NCBI GenBank assembly: GCA_965263255.1
Contig: CBDHHA010000008.1
Coordinates: 4,549,987 to 4,613,986, forward strand
Direction of reading: 5' to 3'
DNA: 64,000 nucleotides
DNA from: Bryobacterales bacterium
GTDB taxonomy: Bacteria; Acidobacteriota; Terriglobia; Bryobacterales; UBA6623
Shown: one piece after another, positions 27,843 through 58,545 of the stretch
Position numbering within the stretch: position 1 is the first letter of the stretch
Layout of the letters: each line of letters begins with the position of its first letter
Notes under the pieces: generated by a model
Seen by the model: only the letters and a program-made list of their open reading frames with translations
What the model was told of the DNA's origin: nothing
Database searches by the model: none
Translations under genes and position numbers: made by a program

Positions 27843-29186
27843 TCAGACGGATGGCGGCATGCCCAGCGACCATTCCCACGCCGACTGGACGGCCACGCCA
27901 GGGGGCGCCTCGTCCGGATACCCGTCCGCGGTCAGCGTCAGGATGCGCTTGCAGGCATCCGGCCGGGCGGTGCCTGCCGACTCCAAGGCGCGGATCTCCC
28001 GCCGGGCCGTGGCAGGATCGGACAGGTCGGCACACGCTTGGATGAGCTCCTCCTCCCCGCCCGGTCCGCGCGCAAGAAAGTCAACTTCGAACCCTTCCTC
28101 GGTCCGAACGTAAGTGACCTCGAATCCTCTCCGCTCGAGTTCCACGAGCACTGCCGTCTCGAGGGCGTGGCCTAGGTTCGCCCGGCCCGTCCTGTCGAAG
28201 ATCGGGATGAGGCCCGTGTCTACCGGATACGCCTTGCGCGGGTTCACCATCCGCTGGCGCTCCGACGCCGATTCCATCCAGATCACGCGCACCAGGAAAC
28301 TGTCATCGAGGTGATTGAGCAGTTGATGCACGGAATCCTTCCCGATCGCTATTCCCTGCGATTTCAGTGCCCCGTAGAACTTCTCGACGCTGAACAGCGA
28401 CCCGGCGTTGCCGAGCAGCTGTCGCACCAGCCAGCGAAGTCCGGTCACGTTTCGTACCTCGTGGCGCTCCACGACATCCCGCAGCATCGCGACATCCACG
28501 TAATCCCGCAGCAGCTTGCGGTGCTGGGACGGTTCAATGCCCTGGGCTTCCGGGAACCCTCCCGTCCGCAGCCAATCCATGTAGGCCCGCTCCATCGAGA
28601 GCCTGTCGCGAGCCGTCAGTGCAGTAGCCTCGAGAGGAATGTTGGCCCCTCTGTGCCGGAGTGCCTCCTCAAAGCTGAACGGATGCAGGAGCACGCTCCA
28701 CCCGCGCCCGCGAAGCGCGGTCGCGATTTCCTTGGAGAGCAAGGCTGCGGAGGAGCCCGTGACAACGACGGCGTCCCCCTCGGATTCGAGGAGGCGCCGA
28801 ACGAATCGCTCCCACCCGCTCACTAGCTGAATCTCGTCGAAGTGCCAAGTCACCCCAGCCTGCGGGCCGGCTCCCGGGAACAGTCGGTGATACTCGTGAT
28901 GCAGCAGGCCCAGATCGGAGGCCTCCAGGCCTGCAAGACGCTCGTCCTCGAACGACACGAACGGAAGCATCTGAAGGGGCATGCCTTCTCGAACCTTATC
29001 GAGGCGCATCTGGTGCAGGAGGGTCGTCTTGCCCGCCCGGCGGACTCCGACAACCGCCGTCGCCTTGCCCGGGAACTGGACTGGCCCGCGCACGTTGCGA
29101 GGCGTCAAGTCCGCCAGCGACTTCCGCGCGGAGTCCGCAAGAAGGTCCCTGAATACCTGCCTCAATGCTGGATTCGTGACCGCCAC
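27843..29186 (-). CDS. AAA_14 + DUF4143-type ATPase (function unknown)
   Basis: GTG start with AGGTGA upstream. Walker A GVRRAGKTTLL and Walker B-like DEIQ (HFDEIQLVSGWERF). The C-terminal half resembles the DUF4143 region of this widespread ATP-binding protein family. Confidence 0.75.
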   Translation of the reverse strand: MAVTNPALRQVFRDLLADSARKSLADLTPRNVRGPVQFPGKATAVVGVRRAGKTTLLHQMRLDKVREGMPLQMLPFVSFEDERLAGLEASDLGLLHHEYHRLFPGAGPQAGVTWHFDEIQLVSGWERFVRRLLESEGDAVVVTGSSAALLSKEIATALRGRGWSVLLHPFSFEEALRHRGANIPLEATALTARDRLSMERAYMDWLRTGGFPEAQGIEPSQHRKLLRDYVDVAMLRDVVERHEVRNVTGLRWLVRQLLGNAGSLFSVEKFYGALKSQGIAIGKDSVHQLLNHLDDSFLVRVIWMESASERQRMVNPRKAYPVDTGLIPIFDRTGRANLGHALETAVLVELERRGFEVTYVRTEEGFEVDFLARGPGGEEELIQACADLSDPATARREIRALESAGTARPDACKRILTLTADGYPDEAPPGVAVQSAWEWSLGMPPSV

Positions 29187-29201
29187 TTCGTCAACTTCAC
29201 C

Positions 29202-29216
29202 TTATCATAAGGATAA
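29202..29216. promoter_or_regulatory. Inverted repeat TTATC-N5-GATAA in the AT-rich region just upstream of the ATPase start
   Basis: It is read directly from the sequence and lies 16-30 nt upstream of GTG 29186 (minus strand). An operator or promoter role is speculative. Confidence 0.25.
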
Positions 29217-29470
29217 TATTTAATGATTTTGTCATTTTTGCAAGATTATATGCGCAGCCTTCGATCAAGAATCCGGGAAACCTCGCTCGGGGTGCAGTGC
29301 CGATAGGTCTACGAGCGCCTTGGGTGTGGATTCGCCAGTCTACGTGCATGCTAGTCGGCAACAACTGCCGCCGGCTCTCCGGCCGAGCGGTCGAAGCGCG
29401 GCCGATGCAGACAAGCGCGCTCCAATGCAGGTGTTGCATTCACTTCACCTGTGCGTGAGATGAATATTCA

Positions 29471-29503
29471 GCACATTTCTCACTGTGACAAGGAGAAATG
29501 TGC
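29471..29503. repeat. Perfect 11-bp inverted repeat (GCACATTTCTC-N11-GAGAAATGTGC)
   Basis: It is read directly from the sequence, in the 455-bp spacer between the PSCyt gene stop (29642) and the ATPase start (29186). Its function is unknown (protein-binding site or terminator-like hairpin). Confidence 0.5.
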
Positions 29504-29641
29504 CCTAGCGCTTCGAGTCGGATGCGATGCGACGCACTGCTGGCAGGTCAGACGCGCGATAGGGTCGCAATCGATGCGCCCGCCCCGAGGACTGGCCGGG
29601 GACCCTCTGGGGAATCAGCGCGGGCCAAATCACGGCCGCGA

Positions 29642-46776: not shown

Positions 46777-48453
46777 TCACGCGAAGTAGATCAGCATGAA
46801 GACTGTCGCCGCCCCCAGCAGCCAGCCCCATGGGCGCTCGCTGCGCCAGAATCCCCGCACGGTCTCTGTTGCCGCGTCTTCCCGGCCCTGCCATGTCAGC
46901 CTGGCGGCATCGGGCGAGGCCCTCTTCTTGCCGAGGCTTAGGGCCACGAGGATCGCCAGGGCGAAGGCCGCGGTCAGCGCCGTCCGGTGAAGGAAGTTCA
47001 GCTGCGGGCCGAATAGGCTCGCGACGGCCGAGCCGGGCCCGATCCACGCCCCGTAAACCCACTCGATTCCGAACGAGAACAGCGGCGAGACGAGCATCGC
47101 CCAGAACGCTCCCGACGCCGAAGCCGCTCTCCAGAGCACACCCGCCAGGAAGGCGACCGCCATGCCGGGGACGAAATGGCCGATCTGGGCAGGCACCTTT
47201 AGGAAGAAGTTATCGGCGGCGTCTTCCGTGTAGATCGCCGCCGCGATGGACGCCGCGATGACAACGAACGCGAGTATCGTGACCCGGCCCACGAGTATCA
47301 GGTTCCGCTCCGACGCCTCGGGTCTCACGAACCGCCGGTAGAAGTCGAACGTGAGCAGCGTGGCGCCGGAGTTCATCATCGAGTCGATGCTGGAGAGGAT
47401 CGCTCCGATCAACCCCGCCGTGATGATGCCTACCAGCCCGTATCCTGCCGGTACGATCAGCTGCACCAGCAGCGGGAACGCGTCGTCCGGGAGCGGGAGG
47501 CCGGAAATCTCCCCGCTCGCCATGCGGGACTCGAACAGGAAGCCGGCCGCGACGCCGGTCGCGATCGATACGAACGGGATCAGCAGCTTGAGGAAGCCGG
47601 CCGCCAGGATACCCATCTTCGCGTCGAATTCGGATCGCGCGGCGAGCGCGCGCTGGGCGATGAACTGGTTGGTCGACCAGTAGAAGATGTGAATGATCAG
47701 AAGGCCGCTGAAGACCCCGGTCCATGGCAGCTGCGGGTGGTCCGGCGGCAGGTAGAGATGGAACTTCTGCTCCGCTGCGGGGAGGGCGGCGTCCTTGGCC
47801 AGCAGGCCGCCGAGCCCGCCGATCTCCGGCTGGGCAAACACCAGCACCGCCACGAAGATCCCTGCCAGCAGAAGGAGCACGGACTGGATGACATCTGTCC
47901 AGATGACCGCCTTCAACCCGCCGACGATCGTGTAGGTTGCCGTCACCGCTGCGAAGATCAGGATCCCGGTGCCGTAGTCGACAGCGAGCGGAGTGCCGTC
48001 CAGCAGGTAGCTCAGGGCCCGGGCGCCGATGTAGAACCCGAGCGCCATCCGAACCACGACGATCATGATGATGTTGAGGCCCGAGTAGAGAACGCTGCTG
48101 CGTTCGTCGTAGCGCTCGCCGAGGTATTCCGAGAGTGTGTACAGGCCCATCCTCCGATACAGGGGGAGGAACACGAACGCAAGCAGGAGCAGCCCGGCGA
48201 TCGCCCCGTACTCGAAGTGCGCCTGGGCGAATCCGATCGAGTAGCCGATCCCGAGCATCCCGACCAAGTGCTCGGCGCTGACGTTCGTGCCGAAGATCGA
48301 GCCGGCGACGCCCCACCAAGGCACGCTCTTGCCCGCGAGGTAGAAGTCCTCGCTGGTGTCTTCCTTCCTCCCGGCCCAGAGCCCGATCGCCAGGACGAGG
48401 CAGATGCTCGCCAGGAAAATGACGATGTCGAACGCGGTCAGCGGAATCGGCAC
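46777..48453 (-). CDS. Sodium:solute symporter family (SSS/SGLT-like) transporter
   Basis: The opening FYLAGKSVPWWGVAGSIFGTNVSAEHLVGMLGIGYSIGF is typical of the SSS family. The protein is 558 aa and polytopic. Confidence 0.85.
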   Translation of the reverse strand: MPIPLTAFDIVIFLASICLVLAIGLWAGRKEDTSEDFYLAGKSVPWWGVAGSIFGTNVSAEHLVGMLGIGYSIGFAQAHFEYGAIAGLLLLAFVFLPLYRRMGLYTLSEYLGERYDERSSVLYSGLNIIMIVVVRMALGFYIGARALSYLLDGTPLAVDYGTGILIFAAVTATYTIVGGLKAVIWTDVIQSVLLLLAGIFVAVLVFAQPEIGGLGGLLAKDAALPAAEQKFHLYLPPDHPQLPWTGVFSGLLIIHIFYWSTNQFIAQRALAARSEFDAKMGILAAGFLKLLIPFVSIATGVAAGFLFESRMASGEISGLPLPDDAFPLLVQLIVPAGYGLVGIITAGLIGAILSSIDSMMNSGATLLTFDFYRRFVRPEASERNLILVGRVTILAFVVIAASIAAAIYTEDAADNFFLKVPAQIGHFVPGMAVAFLAGVLWRAASASGAFWAMLVSPLFSFGIEWVYGAWIGPGSAVASLFGPQLNFLHRTALTAAFALAILVALSLGKKRASPDAARLTWQGREDAATETVRGFWRSERPWGWLLGAATVFMLIYFA

Positions 48454-48488
48454 GTCTTAGACGCTAGCGCAACCGACCGGCACCGCGT

Positions 48489-49919
48489 TTACCAAATGCC
48501 CAGCAGCTTCCACCAAAGGCTGCCGACGGAGCACCAGACCAGTATGTTCCATACCCCGACAAGGAAGCCAGCCTGCCACCATTGCCGGAAGCTGGCGTAT
48601 CCCTGCGAGTAGAAGATGGGGGACGGGACGGTGCCGTAGTGGGTCAGCCCCGCCGAGAGGTTTCCCAGGCAGGCGAAGAGGAAGACGGCAAGACCCGCCG
48701 GGGCGCCCTGCTCGACCAGCATCAGCAGGAAGACCGGAAGCATCGTCAGGAAGTGCATCGTGATGCTGGCCAGCCCGTAATGGGCGAAGAAGTAGATCGG
48801 AACCGCGACCGCGAGCATGGGAAGCCAAGGAATGTCCCCCAGCGTCACGCCGATGTAGTCCGTGATCGCGCTGGGAACTCCCGCGTCGCTGAGCGCCCGG
48901 CCCAGCGTGATCACCCCGCCGTACCAGATCATGATGTCCCAGACCGCGTGCTGACGGACTGCGTCTTGCCAGCGGAGGACTCCGGACAGCAGCAGGACGG
49001 ACGCCCCGGAGACCGAGGCTAGGGCAACAGGTACGCCGTGCAGGTTGGATGTCGTCCAGAGGCCGCATACGACGCCGACGACGGTGATCGTGGTCCACTC
49101 GCGGCTGCCCATGCGTCCGAGCTTGCGCAGCTCGTCACGGGCGAACTCCCTGGCGTGCGGCGTCCGGCGTATCTCCGGCGGAAGCAGCTTCGACACGATC
49201 CAGACCAGGCCGACGACGCTGACGAGCGCCGGGACCACGCCCGCGGCCGCCCAGCCGGCCCAGGTCAGCTCGTAGCCCGCCACGCTGCGCGCGATCTCGA
49301 CGGCGATGAAGTTACCCGCTTGGCCGGTCAGGAACGTAGCTGCCGCGACCGCCTCGCCTTGGTACACCGCCACCATCAGGAACGTGCCGAGCAGCTTTGC
49401 GGTCGCGCCGGGCTTGGAGCCGTACAGCTCGGCCAGGCTGCGCGTGATCGGCATGATCACGCCGCCCGCCCGCGAGGTGTTCGAAGGGATCATCGTCGCC
49501 AGGGACATGTCGCTGAGAATCAGGGCGTAGGCAACGCCGTTCGAACTCGCCCCGAAGAACCGCACGAAGAGCAGCGCCACCCGTTTCGCCAGGGACGTCT
49601 CGATCAGCACGTGAGCGATCAGCAGCGCCCCGACCACCAGCCATACCGCTGGCGTCGCGAAGCCCGAGAGCGCCTGCTCCAGCGTCATCGACCGGGTCCA
49701 GACAGCAGCTACCAGCGACAGCAGGATGACGGCGCCGCCCGGCAAGGGGCGCAGGATCAGGCCGGCTATGGCCGTGGAGAACACCGCCAGCAGCCGCCAG
49801 CCCTCGTCGGAGACGCTCTCGGGCCTGGGAAGCAGCCAGTAAACGGCAACGCCCGTAGCGACAACTGCCAGGAGGCGGCGCGGGTCCGGCAGACCGCCTT
49901 CCGGTGCGTTTCCAGGCAT
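48489..49919 (-). CDS. DASS/SLC13-family anion:sodium symporter
   Basis: GVAYALILSDMSLATMIPSNTSRAGGVIMPI matches the conserved SNT-x-R hairpin motif of DASS carriers, and a second repeat lies in the C-terminal half. Confidence 0.8.
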   Translation of the reverse strand: MPGNAPEGGLPDPRRLLAVVATGVAVYWLLPRPESVSDEGWRLLAVFSTAIAGLILRPLPGGAVILLSLVAAVWTRSMTLEQALSGFATPAVWLVVGALLIAHVLIETSLAKRVALLFVRFFGASSNGVAYALILSDMSLATMIPSNTSRAGGVIMPITRSLAELYGSKPGATAKLLGTFLMVAVYQGEAVAAATFLTGQAGNFIAVEIARSVAGYELTWAGWAAAGVVPALVSVVGLVWIVSKLLPPEIRRTPHAREFARDELRKLGRMGSREWTTITVVGVVCGLWTTSNLHGVPVALASVSGASVLLLSGVLRWQDAVRQHAVWDIMIWYGGVITLGRALSDAGVPSAITDYIGVTLGDIPWLPMLAVAVPIYFFAHYGLASITMHFLTMLPVFLLMLVEQGAPAGLAVFLFACLGNLSAGLTHYGTVPSPIFYSQGYASFRQWWQAGFLVGVWNILVWCSVGSLWWKLLGIW

Positions 49920-49979
49920 AAGCGGGTATTGTAGTTCGCTGCCGAGCCGGACGGGGCGCGCGAACCCCGTGCCGAGCGG

Positions 49980-51149
49980 TCAGGCGACCGACAGGGTGTC
50001 GGAGTCCCAGCCGATCTTCCGGCCCTCCCGGATCGACAGGTTTGCCAGCTGGACGATGAGTGCCGCCTGGAATCCCTTGTCCATGGTCGCCCGAGGGGAC
50101 TCGCGCGTCCGCACGCAGTGCAGGAAGTTCATCACGTGATCGATCGTGGCCTGGGCGAACCCGCCCGGCTGCTCCTTCGAGAACGACGCCGTCTCCGGGG
50201 CGTCCCTGGGGTACACCCGGAGGAACTCCCGGCCGATGTCCATTCGGGCAATCGAGCCGTCGTACGCATTGAGCTGGTCCGCGCGCATCTCGTAGCGCAT
50301 CGCGTTGTAGTTGATGGTGAAGATCGCCAGGAATCCCTGCGGGTATTCGGCGGCCACGACCACGGATTCGGGCTGGTCCATCCCTTCGACATGGGGCCGC
50401 AGCGACGTCGCATTGACGGATACCGGATAGCCAGCGTCCATGATCAGGTGGATCGAGTCGAAGATATGGCAGCCTTGGTCCTGCGCGATTCCCCCCGAGT
50501 ACGCCGACAGGCTCCGCCAGTTGAAGAAGACGAGAGGGTCTTCGGGAACGTCAGGGGCAGGGCCTAGCCAGCCCTTCCAGTCGATGGGCCCCCTGAACGG
50601 CGCCCGCCGGGGCTCGGTCCGCGAGTTGAGCCAGTAGGTCCGTACCATGCGCACGATGCCGAGATCCCCTCCCCGGCGCATGTCGCGCGCCTCGAGGTAG
50701 AGGTTGTAGCTGCGGCGTTGCATCCCGACCTGCACGATCCGATCAGACTCGCGCCACGCTTCCACCAGTTCCTTGCCCTCTTGCGGCGTGTGGCACAGCG
50801 GCTTCTCCACGTACACGTCCTTGCCGGCAGCCATCGCGTCCAGCGTCATGCGATGGTGCCAGTGCTCGGGCGTCGCGATCAGCACCGCGTCCACGTCACG
50901 GTCTTCCAGGACCTTGCGGTAGTCGCGGTATGCGACGGTTCCCGGGCCCGCGGCGGACAGGCCTGCCTCGAGGTTGGGTTCGTAGACGTCGCATACTCCA
51001 TGGACCTTGAGGTTCGGGTCGCGCTTGAACTCGGACATTACCCGGCGGCCCCTCCCGCCGGATCCGATCACACCCAGGCGGACTGCATCGGACGGCGATT
51101 GAGCGAGCGCGGCCCCGGCGGAGGATAGGAAGAAGATGCGGCGGTTCAC
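49980..51149 (-). CDS. Gfo/Idh/MocA-family oxidoreductase with a Tat signal
   Basis: GTG 51149 gives VNRRIFFLSSAGAALAQS. The Rossmann motif is LGVIGSGGRGRR, and EKP is present (DVYVEKPL). Confidence 0.8.
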   Translation of the reverse strand: MNRRIFFLSSAGAALAQSPSDAVRLGVIGSGGRGRRVMSEFKRDPNLKVHGVCDVYEPNLEAGLSAAGPGTVAYRDYRKVLEDRDVDAVLIATPEHWHHRMTLDAMAAGKDVYVEKPLCHTPQEGKELVEAWRESDRIVQVGMQRRSYNLYLEARDMRRGGDLGIVRMVRTYWLNSRTEPRRAPFRGPIDWKGWLGPAPDVPEDPLVFFNWRSLSAYSGGIAQDQGCHIFDSIHLIMDAGYPVSVNATSLRPHVEGMDQPESVVVAAEYPQGFLAIFTINYNAMRYEMRADQLNAYDGSIARMDIGREFLRVYPRDAPETASFSKEQPGGFAQATIDHVMNFLHCVRTRESPRATMDKGFQAALIVQLANLSIREGRKIGWDSDTLSVA

Positions 51150-51537
51150 GGCACCGAGGATTCTCGCACAGAAGGGTGTGGGAGCCGGCAGCCACTTAGG
51201 TGCTTCCCGGCTTGCGCAACGCGGAGAAGGCCGAACGGCGACGAGCGGCGGACGCCCCCGTTCCAGACGCGCCCTTCCCAATGCCTGCTAGGCTTCCATA
51301 CGCCATCCGTCACTGTCGGCGCATGAGTTGGACGGGATGCCTCGGGGCGAATGCCGGACGGAACGGCAAGCTTGGGTAAGGACTAGAATGAGTTCGAGCG
51401 ACGCCGGGCTCATTGGACACCGTTCCGGATGAGCCAGGGCTACTTCCGTGGAGCAGCCGGATGCAAGGCCGGTCGCAGCGTAAGAATCCTGCATACGTCG
51501 TTACGGGACGTTGCCAAGGCACGAAGTGGAGTCGAGT

Positions 51538-52656
51538 ATGGCCGGACATCAGGACCGGATTACCGAAATCAAGGTCTCCAACTATCGGAGTATCGGGCAA
51601 GAGCAGCAGGTCGAACTCGGGCGGCTGACAGTACTCGTCGGACCCAACGGTTCTGGCAAGAGCAACCTAGTCGATGTGCTCAGCTTCGTGCGCGATGCAA
51701 TGCACAATGGCCTCTCGGCCGCAATCACGGGCCGGGGTGGCATCGACGCTGTGCGGCGCAAGAGTGCAGGGCGAGGGCGTCCCTGTAACGTAACCATCCA
51801 GCTATCGGTCAGCCTTGAGTCCGGACAGGGCTCCTACGAATTCGAGATCTCAGGGGACCGGAGAGAGGAGTATCGCGTCAAGTCGGAATCGGCGTTCGTT
51901 CGTCTGAGCGATGGGCCGCAGCGGTTCAGGGTCGAAAAGGGAATCTGGCAGGGACCGGAGGGGCTTGAGCCGAAGATCAGTGACACAGGGCTCGCGCTTC
52001 CCGCTGTGGCTGGGGATGACCGATTCCGTCCTTTGTTTGAATTGATATCACGAGTGGTTATCTATGCCATCTTCCCCGACACGCTGCGAGAACCCCAGAA
52101 ACCCAACCCCGAGAAGCCGATGCACAGGCACGGCGAAAATTGGGTCTCAATTCTGCGGAATCAGGAAGTGTCCACGTGGAAGCCAGAACTCGTTGCCGGG
52201 CTCAAGTATCTCATCGGCGATGTAAGCGACATTAGGGTCAATAGAGTTGCGAATTTCCTGGTTGCGCAGTTCCGACACGGGCAGGGGAGGTGGTTTGATG
52301 CGGGCCAGGAGTCTGACGGCACGCTTCGGGTTGCGGGAATCCTAACCGCCCTGTTGCAAGAGCCGCCACTGCCACTCGTCGGTATCGAGGAGCCTGAACT
52401 GACAATTCACCCTGGAGCGCTTCCAATGTTGATGGACTACCTGCGGCAGGCCAGTGACATATCTCAGGTGCTCCTTACCTCCCACAGCCCCGAGCTGTTG
52501 GATCTTGTCGAAACGGATGAAGTCCGAGTGGTGGCCCGAGCGAATGGCGCAACGCGAATCCGTCCTATGGCGGGGCACCAGAGGGATGTTGTCAAGAGCC
52601 GACTGCTGACCCTCGGCGAGCTCATGACGACTGAAGGCCTATTGCAGCAATTGTGA
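51538..52656 (+). CDS. ABC/SMC-type AAA ATPase (AAA_15/AAA_21-like), partner of the DUF4276 gene
   Basis: ATG 51538 lies 6 nt after GGAG. The opening IKVSNYRSIG precedes Walker A GPNGSGKSN. Signature-like ESDGTLRVAGIL, Walker B LVGIEEPE, H-loop LTSHSPELL. Its stop overlaps the next gene's start (GTGA). Confidence 0.8.
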   Translation: MAGHQDRITEIKVSNYRSIGQEQQVELGRLTVLVGPNGSGKSNLVDVLSFVRDAMHNGLSAAITGRGGIDAVRRKSAGRGRPCNVTIQLSVSLESGQGSYEFEISGDRREEYRVKSESAFVRLSDGPQRFRVEKGIWQGPEGLEPKISDTGLALPAVAGDDRFRPLFELISRVVIYAIFPDTLREPQKPNPEKPMHRHGENWVSILRNQEVSTWKPELVAGLKYLIGDVSDIRVNRVANFLVAQFRHGQGRWFDAGQESDGTLRVAGILTALLQEPPLPLVGIEEPELTIHPGALPMLMDYLRQASDISQVLLTSHSPELLDLVETDEVRVVARANGATRIRPMAGHQRDVVKSRLLTLGELMTTEGLLQQL

Positions 52657-53312
52657 GAATCCTGGTAGTGATGAATAAATCGAAGAAGGTATATGTTCTT
52701 GTAGAGGGCCACGGAGAGGTAGCGTCAGTACAGAACCTTCTCACCAGAATTTCCAGTGAACAGGACGTTCACTTTGCGTGGGCGAAACCCATTAGATGGA
52801 AGAACCTCCACAAGCAAAGTGGGTGCCAGCGTGGGGCGGATTTCATTCGGGCCAAGCCCGATGCGGAGGCCATGCTCGTTCTCCGGGATGGAGACCGCGG
52901 CTGCCCCAAGCAACTGGGACCAGAAATGGCGGATTGGATGCGCAAAGCGAGTCTTCCCTTCCCGTCGGCCGTCGTCTTGCTGCACCCGGAGTACGAGGTT
53001 CTCTTCCTGCCATGCCTCGACCTCATTGCGGGAAGGCTGCTTGACGGTCGTCCTGGCCTCTCTCCGGGAACGGTGTGGGATCGACCGACCTGGGAGTCGA
53101 AACGAGGAGTCAAGGAGTGGCTGACTCGCAACTATCCAAAGAATCGATGCTATAGGGAAACTCTTGACCAACTCCCAATGACACGGATGGTGGATCTTGA
53201 ACGCCTAAGGAAAGCCAATGTGCCGTGTTTCGGAACACTGGAACGGGCCGTGCAATTCCTGGCTCGGAGCTCGGATGCGGGAGCGGTGTATCCCGCAATG
53301 CCCGAGCCGTGA
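52653..53312 (+). CDS. DUF4276-like protein with Toprim-like motifs
   Basis: The strand-1 glutamate is in KKVYVLVEGHGE. The DxD motif is in MLVLRDGDRGCP. A later acidic motif is LLHPEYEVLFL. The start is GTG 52653 or ATG 52671. The DUF4276 assignment comes from memory of the family pattern and needs an HMM check. Confidence 0.7.
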   Translation: MRILVVMNKSKKVYVLVEGHGEVASVQNLLTRISSEQDVHFAWAKPIRWKNLHKQSGCQRGADFIRAKPDAEAMLVLRDGDRGCPKQLGPEMADWMRKASLPFPSAVVLLHPEYEVLFLPCLDLIAGRLLDGRPGLSPGTVWDRPTWESKRGVKEWLTRNYPKNRCYRETLDQLPMTRMVDLERLRKANVPCFGTLERAVQFLARSSDAGAVYPAMPEP

Positions 53313-53555
53313 ACGAATGTGCGCCGCGCGTAGCGCATTGATTCCGCAACGTGCTCCTAGGCAAAGCGGATTCGCGCGTCAATGGACGTTCGTGGGCAGC
53401 CGGCTCATGGCTTGCCTCACTGCCCTCCCGATGTGTAGTCCATAGCCTGGCCGGCCAGCCAATTCGCCCAGGGTCGCACCCATGGTCGTACACTGTCTTC
53501 GGACTGATGGACGGCCCGTCGCCACGAATGGTCCCGGGCCTCGCGAGCTAGCGAA

Positions 53556-55286
53556 GTGCTATCCAAGCTGAGGATCCGCAACTTCAAGCGTTTCGACCAG
53601 CTCGAGGTGGCACTCGGGAACCCGGTCTTGCTCCTTGGGCCCAATGACTCGGGCAAGTCCACCGTGATGCAGGCGCTCTCGCTCTGGGAGACCGGCCTCC
53701 GGCGTTGGCTGGAACGGCATTCCAGGGCACGGGCACCGGCGGACCGGCCCGGGGTGACCCTCAACCGGCGTGATCTCGTCTCGATGCCCGTCCCCAGGGC
53801 CAACCTTCTCTGGAAGGACCTTCGCTTGCGCGACGTTGGCGGGAGTGATGGCTGGCAAGCAACCGAGCACGTCAGGATCGAGATCGTCGTCGAGGGCACT
53901 GGCGGGGGCAGCGCGTGGGAGTGCGGTCTGGAGTTCGACTACGCAAACGAGGACTTGATCTACTGCCGTCCGCTCCGAGCCGACGATGGCCCGGACATCC
54001 GGAGAATCCCTGTACCCGAGCAGGCTGCCGAGGTTCGCACCGCATTCCTGCCCTCGATATCCGGGCTCGCACCGAGCGAGACATTGCTGGCGCCCGGCAC
54101 CGTCGGTGTCCGCATTGGCGAGGGCCGCACCGCCGAGGTGCTGCGGAATCTGTGCCTGGCCGTGTGGGAGCGCCAGCCCGAGAACTGGGACAAGATAGTC
54201 GGGCATATCCGCTCCCTGTTCGGAGCGACCGTCGACCCGCCCCGCTACCAGGTCGAGCGAGGCGAAATCACAGTCGCGTTCCGTGACGGCGACCTGCTAA
54301 TGGACATCTCCTCAGCCGGGCGGGGCTTCCACCAGCTGCTGCTGGTGCTCTCATTCATGTACGCTCGCCCGGGTACGGTGCTGCTGCTGGACGAGCCCGC
54401 TGCACATCTGGAGCCCTCGCGCCAGCGCCAGTCGTATCGGGCGATTCGCGAGGTCTCGCGGGAGACCGGCAGTCAGGTCATCATCTCGACGCATTCCGGG
54501 GTGCTGCTGGACGAGGCCCTCGATCAGGACCTCGTGCTCGCCTTCGTGGGAAAGCCCCGCCAGATTGGCAGGCACTACGGCGAGCGTGCCGCGCAGGCGC
54601 TCCGCGAGATTGGTTTCGAGGACTGCATGCAGGCGGAACAGGCGGGCTGGGTGCTCTACATTGCCGGCCCGGCGGACCTCTCCGCGCTGCGGGCGTTCGC
54701 TCGCCGCCTCGGCCACGAGCGGGCGGTTGCAGCGCTTCAGCGCCCGTTCGTCCGCTACCTCGCGAATTCCGGTTCCGCTGCCGAGCGCCATTTTGGGGCG
54801 CTCGCGACCGTCGTGCCGGAAGTCCGGGGCTGCGCGCTCTTGGACAGCCGGAACTCTGATGACAGTGCCGGCAGTAGTCCCAACGGGCCCGCATTACTTC
54901 GCTGGAGCAGGGGCCGGCTCGAGGACTACGTGCTGACGCCCGCGGCGCTTGAAGCATACGCAGTCCGCGAAGCACGCTCTCAGGCTGTCGGCCCACTCTT
55001 CGCTCCAGACCAGGCCGCGACGCGGCGCCAGGCCATGAGGGAAGCGATCGATTCCGTAGGGGACCTCCAAGGGGAGGACTTGGCCGGGTCGCGGGCTGCC
55101 CATGGCGGGTGGGCTGCGCTCGAGCCGGTCTTCCGGCTCTACAGGCTGAAGCTCGGTCTCGGTGCAGATCTTCCGCTTCCGGATGCGGCGGATCTGGTGG
55201 AGGGCCTCCCCGACAGCGAGATTGATGCCGAGATCCGCGAGAAGCTCGACGCGATCGTTCTCGCGGCGGAGGGTGTGGGCGATTGA
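53556..55286 (+). CDS. OLD-family-like fusion of an N-terminal ABC-type ATPase and a C-terminal Toprim-like domain with degenerate motifs
   Basis: GTG start. The opening LRIRNFKRFD precedes Walker A GPNDSGKST. Signature-like SSAGRGFHQLL, Walker B VLLLDEPAAHLEP, H-loop ISTHSG. In the C-terminal part, WVLYIAGPADLSALRAF parallels the OLD/GajA motif VLLIEGPSEKILFEKV, followed by CALLDSRNSDD and LEDYVLTP, which resembles IENYLL. Confidence 0.7.
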   Translation: MLSKLRIRNFKRFDQLEVALGNPVLLLGPNDSGKSTVMQALSLWETGLRRWLERHSRARAPADRPGVTLNRRDLVSMPVPRANLLWKDLRLRDVGGSDGWQATEHVRIEIVVEGTGGGSAWECGLEFDYANEDLIYCRPLRADDGPDIRRIPVPEQAAEVRTAFLPSISGLAPSETLLAPGTVGVRIGEGRTAEVLRNLCLAVWERQPENWDKIVGHIRSLFGATVDPPRYQVERGEITVAFRDGDLLMDISSAGRGFHQLLLVLSFMYARPGTVLLLDEPAAHLEPSRQRQSYRAIREVSRETGSQVIISTHSGVLLDEALDQDLVLAFVGKPRQIGRHYGERAAQALREIGFEDCMQAEQAGWVLYIAGPADLSALRAFARRLGHERAVAALQRPFVRYLANSGSAAERHFGALATVVPEVRGCALLDSRNSDDSAGSSPNGPALLRWSRGRLEDYVLTPAALEAYAVREARSQAVGPLFAPDQAATRRQAMREAIDSVGDLQGEDLAGSRAAHGGWAALEPVFRLYRLKLGLGADLPLPDAADLVEGLPDSEIDAEIREKLDAIVLAAEGVGD

Positions 55287-55500
55287 AGGCATAGCCGCCA
55301 TGCGCCGCTCCCAGCGCGATTCCCCGGTCCAAGCGCGACACCGGGACGGGTCGAGAGCACGTGGCGAACCAACCGCGCACCAAGCAGGGGACCAACCGCG
55401 GGTGCCGCAGCGTGGGGCGGCGGCTCCGAAGTCGCACCGAGCAGACCATGCGAGGGCAGCCTGACGCCAACCTCTGCGAACAGGCCCCACAATAAGAGAT

Positions 55501-56385
55501 ATGGCTGCGGCAGACCCGTCCTCCAGCGAAACGCCCGTTTCCCGCAAGGCGACGCTGCTGATCACCCTAGTGGCCGTGGCCAGCATCGTCATTCCGTTCT
55601 GGTTCTGGATGGACACGTGGTTCGGAAAGCGCCTCACCGAGGAGCAGATCGGCCAGTACCTGGTTGACGAAGATCGCCCTCGCCGTGCGCAGCATGCGCT
55701 AGCACAGATCTCCCAGCGGATGACTTCCGGAGACGAGTCCGTCAGGGTCTGGTACCCGAGAATCCTGGAATTGGCGCGTCACCAGCTGCCCGAGCTCCGC
55801 GTCACGGTTGCCTGGCTGATGGGAGACGACCCGTCCAGCGAGGAGTTCCACGACGCCCTCCGGGTGCTGGTTGCCGACCCCCACCCCCTGGTACGCCGCA
55901 ACGCCGCGCTCGCTCTGGCGAGATTCGGCGATTCCAGCGGCCGTGAAGAGATGCGCGCGATGCTGCAACCCTACCGCGTTGCCTCGGATCACTCCGGCAT
56001 TGTCACCAATCGCCTCGAGCCTGGCGACGCATTCGAGGCCGGCGCGCTTCTGGTTCGGATCCAGCCGGAAGACGACGCGGACCCGTTGGACGTTCGCGCG
56101 CCCGTGCCCGGGATCGTCGACCGCCAGCTGCGCGCTGATGGCGACCGCGTCACAACGGGCGACGAAGTGACGGTCGTCCGCCCCGAGTCGACGCATATCT
56201 TGCAAGCCCTCGCGGGGCTCTATCTAGTGGGTACTTCCGAGGACATTGGCCTCATCCAGCCGTACCGGAGGCCGAGAAGCGGCCTCAGCGCCCAGATACC
56301 CCAGCAAGCCGCGCTGACGCTGGCCGGAATCCGCGAGCGCTTGGCGGGCGGCTCCCCGGTACCGGCTGCGGGAAGCCAGCTCTAA
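55501..56385 (+). CDS. Membrane-anchored HEAT-repeat protein with a C-terminal barrel-sandwich-hybrid (lipoyl/HlyD-like) motif
   Basis: It has one N-terminal TM helix (LLITLVAVASIVIPFWFWM) and HEAT-like units (DPHPLVRRNAALALARFGDSSGREEM). The segment GIVTNRLEPGDAFEAGALLVRI...VRAPVPGIVDRQLRADGDRVTTGDEVTVV resembles a barrel-sandwich hybrid. Confidence 0.55.
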   Translation: MAAADPSSSETPVSRKATLLITLVAVASIVIPFWFWMDTWFGKRLTEEQIGQYLVDEDRPRRAQHALAQISQRMTSGDESVRVWYPRILELARHQLPELRVTVAWLMGDDPSSEEFHDALRVLVADPHPLVRRNAALALARFGDSSGREEMRAMLQPYRVASDHSGIVTNRLEPGDAFEAGALLVRIQPEDDADPLDVRAPVPGIVDRQLRADGDRVTTGDEVTVVRPESTHILQALAGLYLVGTSEDIGLIQPYRRPRSGLSAQIPQQAALTLAGIRERLAGGSPVPAAGSQL

Positions 56386-57263
56386 GGCAGCGTCGTGACC
56401 TCGTAGCTGTCAGGATCCTTCATGATCCTGTCGACAAGGGCCACGTGCATCGCATGTCCGGCACGCGAGGCCACGACCTTGCCTAGGATCGAGTGACCGA
56501 GCAGGGCTAGGTCCCCGATTAGGTCCAGCACCTTGTGTCGGCACGGCTCGTCCTCATAGCGGAGCCCGCCCTCGTTGAGCACGGATCCGTCCTCGCGGAA
56601 GCAGACTGCGTTCTCCAGGCTCGCGCCGCGGATCAGGCCCATGTCCCGCATCGCCGACAGTTCGTTCTCGAAGCCGAATGTCCGCGCCGGCGCGATCTCT
56701 GCCAGGTAGGACTCGGGAGTCACCCGGATTCCGACCTGCTGCTGCTCCACCCCGGGCTTGTTGTAGTTCGTCCGGCAGTCGATTTCGAATGAATCCGCAG
56801 GCTCTATCGAGACCAGCTTGTCTCCCTCGGCGACCTCGACCCGCTTCCGCAGCCGAAGGTATCTCCGGCGTCTCCTCTGCCTCTCGACTCCGGCCTCCTC
56901 GATGAGCCGTGCGAATGGGCGGGCGCTCCCGTCAAGGATGGGCACTTCCAGGTTGTCGATCTCGATCCGGACGTTGTCGACTCCGACCGCGCGCAGCACG
57001 CTCAGCAAGTGCTCCGTCGTGGAGAGCAGGACCCCTTGGCGCATCAGGCTCGTCGCGTAGGACACCCTGGCAACGTGTCGCCAGCTGGCTGGGATCTCGA
57101 AGCCGGCCAGATCCGTTCGGGCGAAGACGACGCCCCGGCCCGATGGAGACGGAACCATGCGCAGACGGACTTCGACGCCGCTGTGGAGTCCGACGCCGCT
57201 CGCCGACACCGGCTTGCCAATGGTGTGCTCGTAGGTCGCGGAGAGGGGAGCGGGTGAGCGCAT
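56382..57263 (-). CDS. lpxC: UDP-3-O-acyl-N-acetylglucosamine deacetylase
   Basis: It aligns by eye with E. coli LpxC: SGVGLHSG, TTEHLLSVLRAVGVDN, PILDGSARPF, ARTFGF, DEPCRHKVLDLIGDLALLG, GHAMH. The start is ATG 57263 (alternative 57284). Confidence 0.9.
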   Translation of the reverse strand: MRSPAPLSATYEHTIGKPVSASGVGLHSGVEVRLRMVPSPSGRGVVFARTDLAGFEIPASWRHVARVSYATSLMRQGVLLSTTEHLLSVLRAVGVDNVRIEIDNLEVPILDGSARPFARLIEEAGVERQRRRRRYLRLRKRVEVAEGDKLVSIEPADSFEIDCRTNYNKPGVEQQQVGIRVTPESYLAEIAPARTFGFENELSAMRDMGLIRGASLENAVCFREDGSVLNEGGLRYEDEPCRHKVLDLIGDLALLGHSILGKVVASRAGHAMHVALVDRIMKDPDSYEVTTLP

Positions 57264-57372
57264 TCGCCAATCAGTGCACTCCATTGTAGTTGGCGGGGGA
57301 TGGGCACCCCAAGTGATTGTCAAACAAGGATTTCGACACACCGGGGTGTGTCGGGAACGCAACTATTCCGGG

Positions 57373-58545
57373 CTAGATCCTGCCGTACAGCCGGCCGCGG
57401 TTGAGTAGCAGGAGAGGGTCGAAGTCCGCCTTGACCCGTTGCATGAGGTCGAATTCGCTTCCGCTTGCGTCCCACTGGACGAGGTCGCGCTTCACGTCGT
57501 CGTGCGCGGACTCGAGAGTCGCGCTGAAGCCCTCGTCGCGGAGGGCCTGGAGTGCCCTGCTCGCTGTCTCGGCGTCGGGCGCTAGGCACAGCCCCGTAGC
57601 GTTGCCCGCCCGCAGCGCTGCGGCGCAACCGGCCCGCTCGGCCTGACCTAGGAGGGTGTCGAGTCGCGAGTGCACTGTCGAAACACGGATCAACGCCCCT
57701 GACGGATGTCCGTCGAGCCACTGCGGCCCGCATTCCCTGATCCGCTCCCAGGCGTCGGCCGGCAGATCCTCGAGTTCCACGCCTGCGCGGCTCGCAAGGG
57801 ATCGGTATTCGTCCGCGTAGCGGCGTGTCACCGCGGCACTTCCCGACGCCTCCACCAGCAGCGAATGGAACGGATCCAGCCCGGTGTGCGCAGCCGCCCT
57901 CGGGTCGAGCCAGTCGATTGCCACGGGCTGGAGCTCCGAGCCGAGCACCTCCTGCTTGACCGCCAGCAGCGCTTCCATGGATGCGGACCGGAACGCGAAC
58001 GACGCCATGGACTCGGGTCTCGGAAACACCTTGAAGTTGGCCGATGCGATCACCGCGAGCGTCCCGAAGGAGCCGATCATGAGCTTCCCCATATCGAGGC
58101 CGGTCACGTTCTTGACGACCATTCCGCCGGAGCTGACCAGCTTGCCGTCCAGCGTCGCGAAGCGCATTCCGATGACCATGTCTCGCGCCGTCCCGTACCG
58201 CCTCCGCCGCGGACCGCTGGAATTCGTGGCGAGGATCCCACCGATCGTGGCGCTCTCCTGGCAGGGAGGGTCAAGGGGCAGGAACTGGTTGTTCTCCGCA
58301 AGGATCCTAACCAGCTCGGAATACCGCATGCCGGCCTGCAGGCTGACCGTCAGGTCGGCGGGCTCGTAAGCGAGCAGCCGGTCCAGCTTCTTGGTCTCGA
58401 TCCGATAGCGCGCCTCGGACACCGGGCCTCCGGAGAGGCGCTTCGAGAAGGATCCGCCTGTTTCGACGCTAGCCTGCTCCTCGCTGCATCGAACCAGCGC
58501 ATCGCGCAGTTCCTCGGCTGTCGCCGGCACGATCGAATCTGGCAT
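57373..58545 (-). CDS. FAD-binding oxidoreductase (FAD_binding_4, GlcE-like)
   Basis: LLAYEPADLTVSLQAGMRYSELVRILAENNQFLPLDPP...TIGGILATNSSGPRR..YGTARDMVIGMRFATLDGKLV..GGMVVKNVTGLDMGKLMIGSFGTLAVI is the glycolate-oxidase GlcE / D-lactate dehydrogenase fold signature. Confidence 0.75.
   Translation of the reverse strand: MPDSIVPATAEELRDALVRCSEEQASVETGGSFSKRLSGGPVSEARYRIETKKLDRLLAYEPADLTVSLQAGMRYSELVRILAENNQFLPLDPPCQESATIGGILATNSSGPRRRRYGTARDMVIGMRFATLDGKLVSSGGMVVKNVTGLDMGKLMIGSFGTLAVIASANFKVFPRPESMASFAFRSASMEALLAVKQEVLGSELQPVAIDWLDPRAAAHTGLDPFHSLLVEASGSAAVTRRYADEYRSLASRAGVELEDLPADAWERIRECGPQWLDGHPSGALIRVSTVHSRLDTLLGQAERAGCAAALRAGNATGLCLAPDAETASRALQALRDEGFSATLESAHDDVKRDLVQWDASGSEFDLMQRVKADFDPLLLLNRGRLYGRI

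Follow-up and report, generated by a model that had tools for sequence, protein, structure and literature searches.

A probable composite of a strain-variable HEC-01-type cassette and a resident OLD-like ATPase gene in a Bryobacterales genome

The closest described relatives of the locus analyzed here join an ATP-binding cassette (ABC) ATPase to a Toprim element. HEC-01 was defined as such a combination of ABC ATPase and TOPRIM, embedded in Hma and other systems, and its component HEC-01B shares the metal-binding site of OLD (Payne et al. 2024, bioRxiv 10.1101/2024.01.29.577857); a HEC-01 from cold seeps is reported to protect Escherichia coli B from one or more of the phages T4, T5 and T7 (Nat Commun 2026, PMC12881386). 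DUF4276 has been placed in the Toprim superfamily, and its homologue Mad4 is part of the MADS system (PMC12065111), in which deletions of mad3 and mad4 weaken defence and the methylase gene mad5 is deletable only along with mad2 or mad3 (Maestri et al., bioRxiv 10.1101/2023.03.30.534895). Class 1 OLD genes are typically solitary and do not lie beside other defence genes (PMC10568477), and the archaeal OLD-family ATPase Cran1 has a cell-cycle role with its nickase activity kept (PMC12796447). Here, we present the computational analysis of three co-oriented plus-strand genes at 51.3–55.3 kb of a 64,000-nucleotide stretch of the Bryobacterales bacterium contig CBDHHA010000008.1 (assembly GCA_965263255.1), the whole of which is referred to as the window. 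A preliminary description had proposed them as a compact candidate anti-phage island of two stacked ATPase–Toprim modules, one split over genes 1 and 2 and the other fused in gene 3.

In our assessment, the locus probably combines two elements that are unrelated and differ in history, and that were brought next to each other by an insertion event and not by co-evolution as an island. Comparison by blastn was made with L001, a contig from metagenome ERZ25072258 whose gene 3 protein is 98% identical to that of the window. Positions 47001–51183 and 53484–58000 of the window matched it at 98.1% and 98.3% identity respectively and nothing aligned between them; where the window has the 2300 bp with genes 1 and 2, the contig has 229 bp of unrelated sequence. 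Both alleles are present in this metagenome, the one with the gene pair (ctg7696) at a coverage of 142x vs 15x for the one without it. The gene for a GFO/IDH/MocA oxidoreductase (GFO), the left neighbour, adjoins gene 3 without the pair in L002–L004 (gene 3 61% identical) and also in the Bryobacterales metagenome-assembled genomes (MAGs) L014 and L015 (65% and 60%). Since these relatives lack the pair, its gain in the lineage of the window is the parsimonious reading.

The composition of the segment agrees with a gain. Its GC content of 0.593 (0.589–0.593) is the lowest of any 2300-nt stretch in the 64 kb (mean 0.662, standard deviation 0.019), and GC at third codon positions (GC3) is 0.67 in gene 1 and 0.62 in gene 2, compared with 0.80 in gene 3 and 0.80–0.87 over gene 3 and all other neighbours. 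The 60-nt stretches 52021–52080 and 52661–52720, which had been counted by hand at 45% GC, have exactly that value, and stretches as low as this make up only 0.5% of those in the 64 kb. The first module is thus compositionally foreign, as had been stated, and gene 3 is native. Taken together, the segment is probably a recently acquired, horizontally transferred HEC-01 cassette.

Judged by sequence, genes 1 and 2 are a member of the catalogued candidate system HEC-01, an ABC ATPase with a Toprim protein. Gene 1 matches the PADLOC model of HEC-01A (PDLC04178) at 8.3e-100, with residues 14–377 covering profile positions 6–380 of 399, and gene 2 matches HEC-01B (PDLC04196) at 5.6e-31 over profile positions 3–193 of 197, that is, nearly end to end in both cases and in the same two-gene order of ABC ATPase followed by DUF4276/Toprim. 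With Pfam, gene 1 is recognized by AAA_21 (2.1e-34) and AAA_15 (4.2e-16), and its Walker A (GPNGSGKS), signature (SDGTLR), Walker B (IEEPE) and H-loop (SHSPE) are readable. Gene 2 matches DUF4276 (PF14103) at 1.8e-10 (41.9 bits, cut-off 30.2), which bears out the earlier assignment of the middle protein. The view that the pair was the best candidate for an undescribed system, with no experimental characterization, did not hold, given its place in PADLOC as HEC-01 and the published tests of that system. Six residues of gene 2 (E12, G13, D73, D75, E107 and E109), invariant across 120 homologues, are retained in the window.

The two genes remain paired in every homologue context examined, including L013 and L095–L098. 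One such pair lies inside a type I restriction-modification (R-M) operon as HsdR-HsdS-[A-B]-HsdM (L097, a Delongbacteria MAG), an embedding like that originally described for HEC-01; another adjoins a TIR-NB-ARC STAND gene, and others adjoin transposases, insertion sequence (IS) elements or an integrase. The pair of the window is not inside R-M or Hma and sits between the oxidoreductase gene and the OLD-like gene 3. Searches of the 2.3-kb insert DNA against plasmids and of the gene 2 protein against phages gave no match, and the gene 2 protein found three remote Streptomyces DUF4276 genes on plasmids. In L013 (7355–10675), a 60%-identical pair is placed within a BatA/VWA (aerotolerance-type) gene cluster, with a DUF4062 protein and a split Transposase_mut gene as its direct neighbours, an arrangement suggestive of transposon-associated delivery in that genome.

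Among the described systems with a similar pairing, mad3/mad4 of MADS likewise join an AAA_21 ATPase to DUF4276, and gene 1 matches the NCBIfam MAD3 model at 1.4e-29 and PADLOC mad3 at 1e-22. However, its 103.5 bits stand against a MAD3 cut-off of 420, and there is no mad1, mad2, mad5–8 or methyltransferase near the pair. PARIS has the same logic of ABC ATPase and Toprim effector but gene 2, like the C-terminus of gene 3, matches neither DUF4435 nor an AriB model. Gabija (class 2 OLD) differs by its UvrD/PcrA-like helicase GajB, for which no open reading frame (ORF) exists in 49–58 kb, and matches to the GajA model were partial and confined to the ATPase.

Gene 3 has a different background. 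Its N-terminal part is recognized by AAA_15 (9.7e-18) and AAA_21 (1.8e-17), and Walker A (GPNDSGKS), signature (SSAGRG), Walker B (LLLDEP) and H-loop (THSG) can be read directly, so that the full set of ATPase motifs described earlier is seen in both ATPases. The best match in a profile search of the Protein Data Bank (PDB) was the class 1 OLD of Thermus scotoductus (Ts OLD, 6p74; 1e-13), and Foldseek returned PtuA, Ts OLD and GajA as relatives at about 1e-10, with Ts OLD aligned at 2.4e-10 over 640 columns, the full length. For both ATPases, the NCBIfam recF model reached 24–27 bits vs a cut-off of 172 and the SMC model 35 bits vs 729, and matches to recF, SMC and Rad50 models were limited to the Walker A region. 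These matches support the assignment of both to the defence-type AAA_15/AAA_21 group (OLD/AriA/PtuA/GajA-like) and not to housekeeping RecF/RecN/SbcC, the placement that had been named as the refuting one. Recent paralogy of genes 1 and 3 was considered and rejected, as the two share 35% identity over a 43-residue Walker A region only.

In terms of history, gene 3 is a long-resident, vertically inherited gene of native composition. Against L002, its ratio of nonsynonymous to synonymous substitution rates (dN/dS) is 0.215 overall (dS about 1.3; ATPase 0.19, C-terminal domain 0.25), vs 0.235 for lpxC and 0.146 for the HEAT-repeat gene to the right; against the much closer L001, the ATPase has 0.08. 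Purifying selection at a dN/dS of about 0.2 is what these values describe. The gene evolves faster than its left neighbours, since the oxidoreductase is 92% identical in L014 and 86% in L015, where gene 3 is only 65% and 60% identical.

The family to which gene 3 belongs is large. A word-indexed search returned 6770 homologues, and the best 120 of these are 45–68% identical over the full length, apart from the one 98% copy of the co-occurring strain, with lengths mostly of 561–637 aa around a near-constant value of about 575 aa. Among the best 80 full-length loci, taken one per species in a genome scan, are Acidobacteriota, Chloroflexota, several classes of Proteobacteria, Latescibacterota, Actinomycetota, Spirochaetia, Nitrospirota, Planctomycetota, Verrucomicrobiota and one Bathyarchaeota MAG. 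Identity stays at about 43–53% in 78 of them whatever the phylum (the two Bryobacterales loci have 60–65%), which points to horizontal spread of the family. A profile of the C-terminal 230 residues retrieved 908 clusters at 50% identity, and the domain is C-terminal in all full-length proteins (about 550–630 aa) among the 150 matches listed. No homologue was found in 50,697 phage records, and plasmid matches were remote only, at 21–27% identity.

No conserved partner gene accompanies the family across the 80 loci, as judged by all-against-all clustering of ORFs within 8 kb on either side; generic ABC ATPases and short-chain dehydrogenases (SDRs) occur there most often. The homologues are solitary in L005–L010 and elsewhere mostly solitary among ordinary genes. 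Such a single-gene arrangement is also typical of class 1 OLD, and solitary placement is neither proof nor exclusion of a defence role. Three homologues have features of their own: P0087 (765 aa) has an extra HsdM_N domain (PF12161), in P0050 (658 aa) the AEQTGWVLYLEGSTDL...RPFVRYV segment is duplicated internally within the C-terminal domain, and in L018 (9740–11521, a Syntrophobacterales MAG) the homologue is directly followed by an ORF for an ABC ATPase of about 593 aa (phmmer 1.9e-08 to gene 3), with an HsdM gene in the same locus.

These neighbourhoods bear on the reading of the locus as a real defence island made up of two stacked ATPase–Toprim systems, each of them active, independent and anti-phage. 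It would be consistent with the defence-type affiliation of both ATPases, the adjacency and common orientation of the genes, the presence of HsdM or HsdS near 5 of the 80 gene 3-family loci, a distant relative of gene 3 inside a BREX operon, and the R-M and STAND contexts of HEC-01 homologues. We regard it as unlikely, for gene 3 is resident and of native composition beside the oxidoreductase gene in relatives without the pair, while genes 1 and 2 form a separate insertion. Moreover, the window copy of gene 3 lacks the conserved glutamate and other acidic residues of its family, a PADLOC scan of 116 immediate neighbours of gene 3 homologues (about 60 loci) gave no family with more than three members, and further hallmarks (defence, integrase, tRNA) are absent. 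The stacking taken as typical of defence islands is not supported.

The C-terminal domain of gene 3 is likely, from its motif pattern and distant relationships, to derive from a family of divergent Toprim-type nucleases. The predicted structure of the domain (predicted local distance difference test score, pLDDT, 88.9; predicted template modelling score, pTM, 0.85) has the topology strand-helix-strand-helix-strand-loop-strand, with four strands, followed by a helical bundle. Across 79 species, three motifs are near-invariant: WVLYLEGSTD and RREIENY follow strands 1 and 4, respectively, and ALFDR closes strand 3; the glutamate of LEG is present in 73 of the 79. The spacing of the motifs is that expected of a Toprim glutamate and acidic cluster, which is why the domain is read as Toprim-like, and the EGxxD / D / ExNY pattern is similar to that of PARIS. 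Several separate lineages, namely the Bryobacterales clade, two of Spirochaetia and one of Pseudomonadales, have also lost the acidic motifs jointly.

A transitive link to merged PARIS AriAB (class 4 OLD), whose one-polypeptide layout gene 3 shares, is given by a 625-aa protein from plasmid pNsp_c of Nostoc sp. ATCC 53789. This protein is 27% identical to a canonical gene 3-family member over residues 1–457, is hit through its Toprim region by the PADLOC model of merged-PARIS AriAB (2e-32), and aligns with the gene 3 family by hhalign at 99.6% probability up to and including the LYLEG..D motif. Its gene is embedded in a BREX-1 operon, where pglX and pglZ flank it (L099, NZ_CP046706.1 64700–78067); the same operon has a second embedded gene, for a HEPN-domain protein, between brxC and pglX. 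Differences from PARIS are the length of about 575 aa vs 694 positions in the PADLOC AriAB model and the alignment of that model to the window protein over residues 274–334 only, in the ATPase part. From class 1 OLD (P2 Old, Ts OLD 6P74, Vibrio cholerae OLD), with which gene 3 shares the OLD-type ABC ATPase and the single gene without a dedicated partner, the family differs in that its C-terminal domain is not recognized as Toprim_Old and in having a single aspartate where OLD has DxD, and the window copy further in lacking a glutamate at the catalytic position.

Pfam and PADLOC searches with the isolated C-terminus of the window copy and of four canonical members retrieved no nuclease model, Pfam on ten divergent family members gave ATPase models only above threshold, and the C-terminal alignment, used as a profile against the PDB, found chance matches only. 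A sub-threshold match to SNaCT8 (short NACHT-associated C-terminal domain; E 0.0025, 18 bits vs 27) in residues 367–509 of P0377 is a possible lead to relatives of the domain. Of the Pfam families that had been expected over the three genes, AAA_15/AAA_21 and DUF4276 were found, while DUF4435 and Toprim were not. Accordingly, the claim of two independent ATPase–Toprim combinations stands for the first pair; for the second, the Toprim part escapes Pfam, PADLOC, the PDB search, Foldseek and hhalign, and its glutamate is lost in the window copy.

At the three family motifs, gene 3 of the window reads IAGPAD, CALLDSRN and RGRLEDY, and the LEG glutamate is lost here, in L014 and in L015 along with changes in FDR and EIENY. 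The Walker A lysine, signature, Walker B and H-loop histidine are retained; alanine replaces the D-loop aspartate (D282A) and glycine a near-invariant glutamate after the H-loop (E315G). As far as residues can tell, this copy is most likely a retained ATPase with its ancestral catalytic site silenced and probably not a working ATPase–nuclease.

Several observations weigh against the account given so far. The direction of the indel, gain vs loss, is drawn from outgroup parsimony and composition, without a footprint. A tested HEC-01 representative gave no protection against the coliphages used (Payne et al. 2024, bioRxiv 10.1101/2024.01.29.577857). The acidic motif, RDEDD in 116 of 120 HEC-01B homologues, is RDGDR in gene 2 of the window, and each of the two changes, E74G and D76R, is found in the window sequence alone among the 120; the cassette may hence be impaired by them, and its activity is not to be assumed. 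With regard to the Toprim-like nature of gene 3, Foldseek of the C-terminal model against PDB gave a best E of 0.37 (chain 8ux9_A of a PARIS complex) and against BFVD nothing. By hhalign, the C-terminal alignment reached a probability of 0.1% with DUF4276, although the glutamate and aspartate columns did line up, and of 3% with the Nostoc C-terminus alone; canonical C-terminal domains by themselves match no PADLOC nuclease model. Lastly, the dN/dS of the gene 3 C-terminal domain against L001 is 0.76, a value based on no more than 11 nonsynonymous and 5 synonymous changes; I369L and A370S among them fall at the former glutamate motif, and the value could mean recent relaxation instead of retained function.

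The last value leads to the reading of gene 3 as a decaying, functionless relic on its way to becoming a pseudogene, left over from an OLD-like defence gene that was once active. The conserved glutamate is replaced by varying residues between relatives (A, G, N, S, R), and D282A and E315G are specific to the window at otherwise near-invariant ATPase positions, which would fit decay. But lineages as far apart as 60% amino-acid identity (dS above 1) still have intact full-length ORFs, both domains show a dN/dS of about 0.2, comparable with lpxC and the HEAT-repeat gene, the ATPase motifs are kept as described above, and codon usage is native; a relic is quite unlikely on these grounds.

Tentatively, and with more doubt than confidence, we put forward that the gene 3 family as a whole is an unrecognized, very widespread single-gene OLD/PARIS-like system with a highly diverged Toprim-like or entirely new catalytic domain that Pfam and PADLOC lack. 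Its Bryobacterales copies would have been exapted, catalytically silenced and kept by selection for a chromosomal ATPase role, in parallel to Cran1 of archaea, and their ATPase might also sense on behalf of effectors acquired later, the HEC-01 pair next door being an example. The parallel is one of description, Cran1 being an OLD-family protein encoded on the chromosome, kept by vertical descent and without an antiviral role, and it differs in the nickase activity that Cran1 retains. The same precedent (PMC12796447) could serve the opposite reading, that the family is throughout a chromosomal nucleic-acid maintenance ATPase without an immune role and its C-terminal domain no nuclease. The solitary placement of most homologues among metabolic and transport genes, the absence from phage records with only remote plasmid matches, the extreme conservation of the motifs across phyla and the lack of a match to known nuclease models would all suit it. 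On the other side, the distribution is sporadic, with identity of about 45–53% whatever the phylum, as expected of horizontal spread and not of a core gene; class 1 OLD genes are solitary too (PMC10568477), occasional type I R-M contexts and the HsdM_N fusion of P0087 do occur, and the acidic motifs are lost jointly in separate lineages, as for one active site. We therefore give the maintenance reading little probability.

Returning to the composite locus, a mechanism can be sketched by analogy with PARIS, OLD and Gabija. HEC-01A would be the sensor or licensing subunit, detecting an infection cue and licensing HEC-01B, as the genetics of MADS also suggest, and HEC-01B would be the Toprim effector, cleaving DNA or tRNA. 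Canonical proteins of the gene 3 family would, by the same analogy, combine sensing and cutting in one chain. In Bryobacterales, where the acidic residues are replaced and the whole protein is under purifying selection, gene 3 may act as sensor or scaffold or in an exapted role, and the window copy would be unable to use the ancestral catalytic site.

The coordinates of the genes, domains and motifs are collected in Table 1. The three plus-strand genes of the preliminary description are borne out by the ORF list of the window. For gene 1, the mechanical ORF starts at TTG 51511, and the ATG at 51538 (372 aa) is the start used in public gene calls on identical contigs (L011 and L012). Gene 2 has an alternative GTG start at 52653, and depending on the start chosen, the adjacent co-oriented genes 1 and 2 are separated by a 14-nt gap or overlap by 4 nt; protein P0121 (213 aa) is 100% identical to gene 2.

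Table 1 Features of the composite locus and its flanks, in window coordinates
Feature	Position	Strand	Basis or remark
GFO/IDH/MocA oxidoreductase, left neighbour	49980–51038	-	Pfam GFO_IDH_MocA 1.6e-23
Strain-variable segment with genes 1 and 2 inside, 2300 bp	51184–53483	no strand	blastn vs L001, GC
Gene 1, HEC-01A-type ABC ATPase, 372 aa from ATG	51538–52656	+	PADLOC, Pfam
Gene 1 Walker A, GPNGSGKS	51640–51663	+	read from sequence
Gene 2, HEC-01B / DUF4276 Toprim-superfamily protein, 213 aa	52671–53312	+	PADLOC, Pfam
Gene 2 motif VEGHGE	52701–52718	+	sequence
Gene 2 acidic motif LRDGDRGCP	52881–52907	+	sequence
Gene 3, 576 aa	53556–55286	+	ORF list
Gene 3 N-terminal ABC ATPase domain, residues 1–345	53556–54590	+	Pfam, PDB profile search, Foldseek
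Gene 3 Walker A, GPNDSGKS	53637–53660	+	sequence
Gene 3 Walker B/D-loop, LLLDEPAAHLE (D-loop Asp to Ala)	54381–54413	+	sequence
Gene 3 C-terminal family-specific domain, residues 346–576	54591–55286	+	model, family alignment
Gene 3 degenerate motif WVLYIAGPAD (consensus WVLYLEGSTD)	54648–54677	+	family alignment
Gene 3 degenerate motif CALLDSRN (consensus ALFDR)	54831–54854	+	family alignment
Gene 3 degenerate motif RGRLEDYV (consensus RREIENY)	54909–54932	+	family alignment
HEAT-repeat protein, 294 aa, context gene	55501–56385	+	Pfam HEAT_2 1.8e-08
lpxC	56382–57362	-	right of HEAT-repeat gene

The three genes had been placed between a transporter block and lpxC. lpxC does lie downstream, with the HEAT-repeat gene intervening, and the gene on the left is the oxidoreductase. 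The HEAT-repeat gene converges on lpxC with a 4-nt overlap of the 3' ends; it is co-syntenic with gene 3 in L001–L004 and was not found 3' of gene 3 in L014 or L015 by tblastn at E 1e-8 or better. In agreement with the preliminary description, neither an integrase nor a tRNA was found in the 64-kb window, and a search for direct or inverted repeats at the boundaries gave chance-level short matches only, such as a 12-nt inverted pair at 51182/53395. An Rfam scan of 50900–55700 had no match, and promoter and terminator scans stayed at chance level. About 6 kb downstream of gene 3, L002 (16205–17839) and L004 (13335–14942) carry a DUF3375 and MksE/JetB (Wadjet/Mks-like) cluster where L001 has sulfite/nitrite reductase genes, a difference that marks a second variable spot near the locus. 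Elsewhere in the window, an ATPase gene with AAA_14 and DUF4143 (Pfam 1.8e-26 and 5e-13) occupies 27843–29186 on the minus strand, and after it, at 29161–29520, is the only other cluster of very-low-GC 60-nt stretches in the 64 kb, which appears intergenic, upstream of a 1040-aa ORF.

Overall, HEC-01 at this locus is a clean presence/absence polymorphism between co-occurring strains of about 98% identity, useful as a field example of a candidate system with disputed activity, and brings no new biology. Gene 3 is the more useful lead, as it belongs to a very large ATPase family, of striking conservation and about 575 aa in length, that annotation tools relying on Pfam, PADLOC or solved structures would call just an "AAA family ATPase". 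If its canonical members are indeed immune nucleases, a common single-gene system would be added to those described, and the Bryobacterales lineage would be a documented case of a defence gene retained after its fixation and the loss of its catalytic residues.

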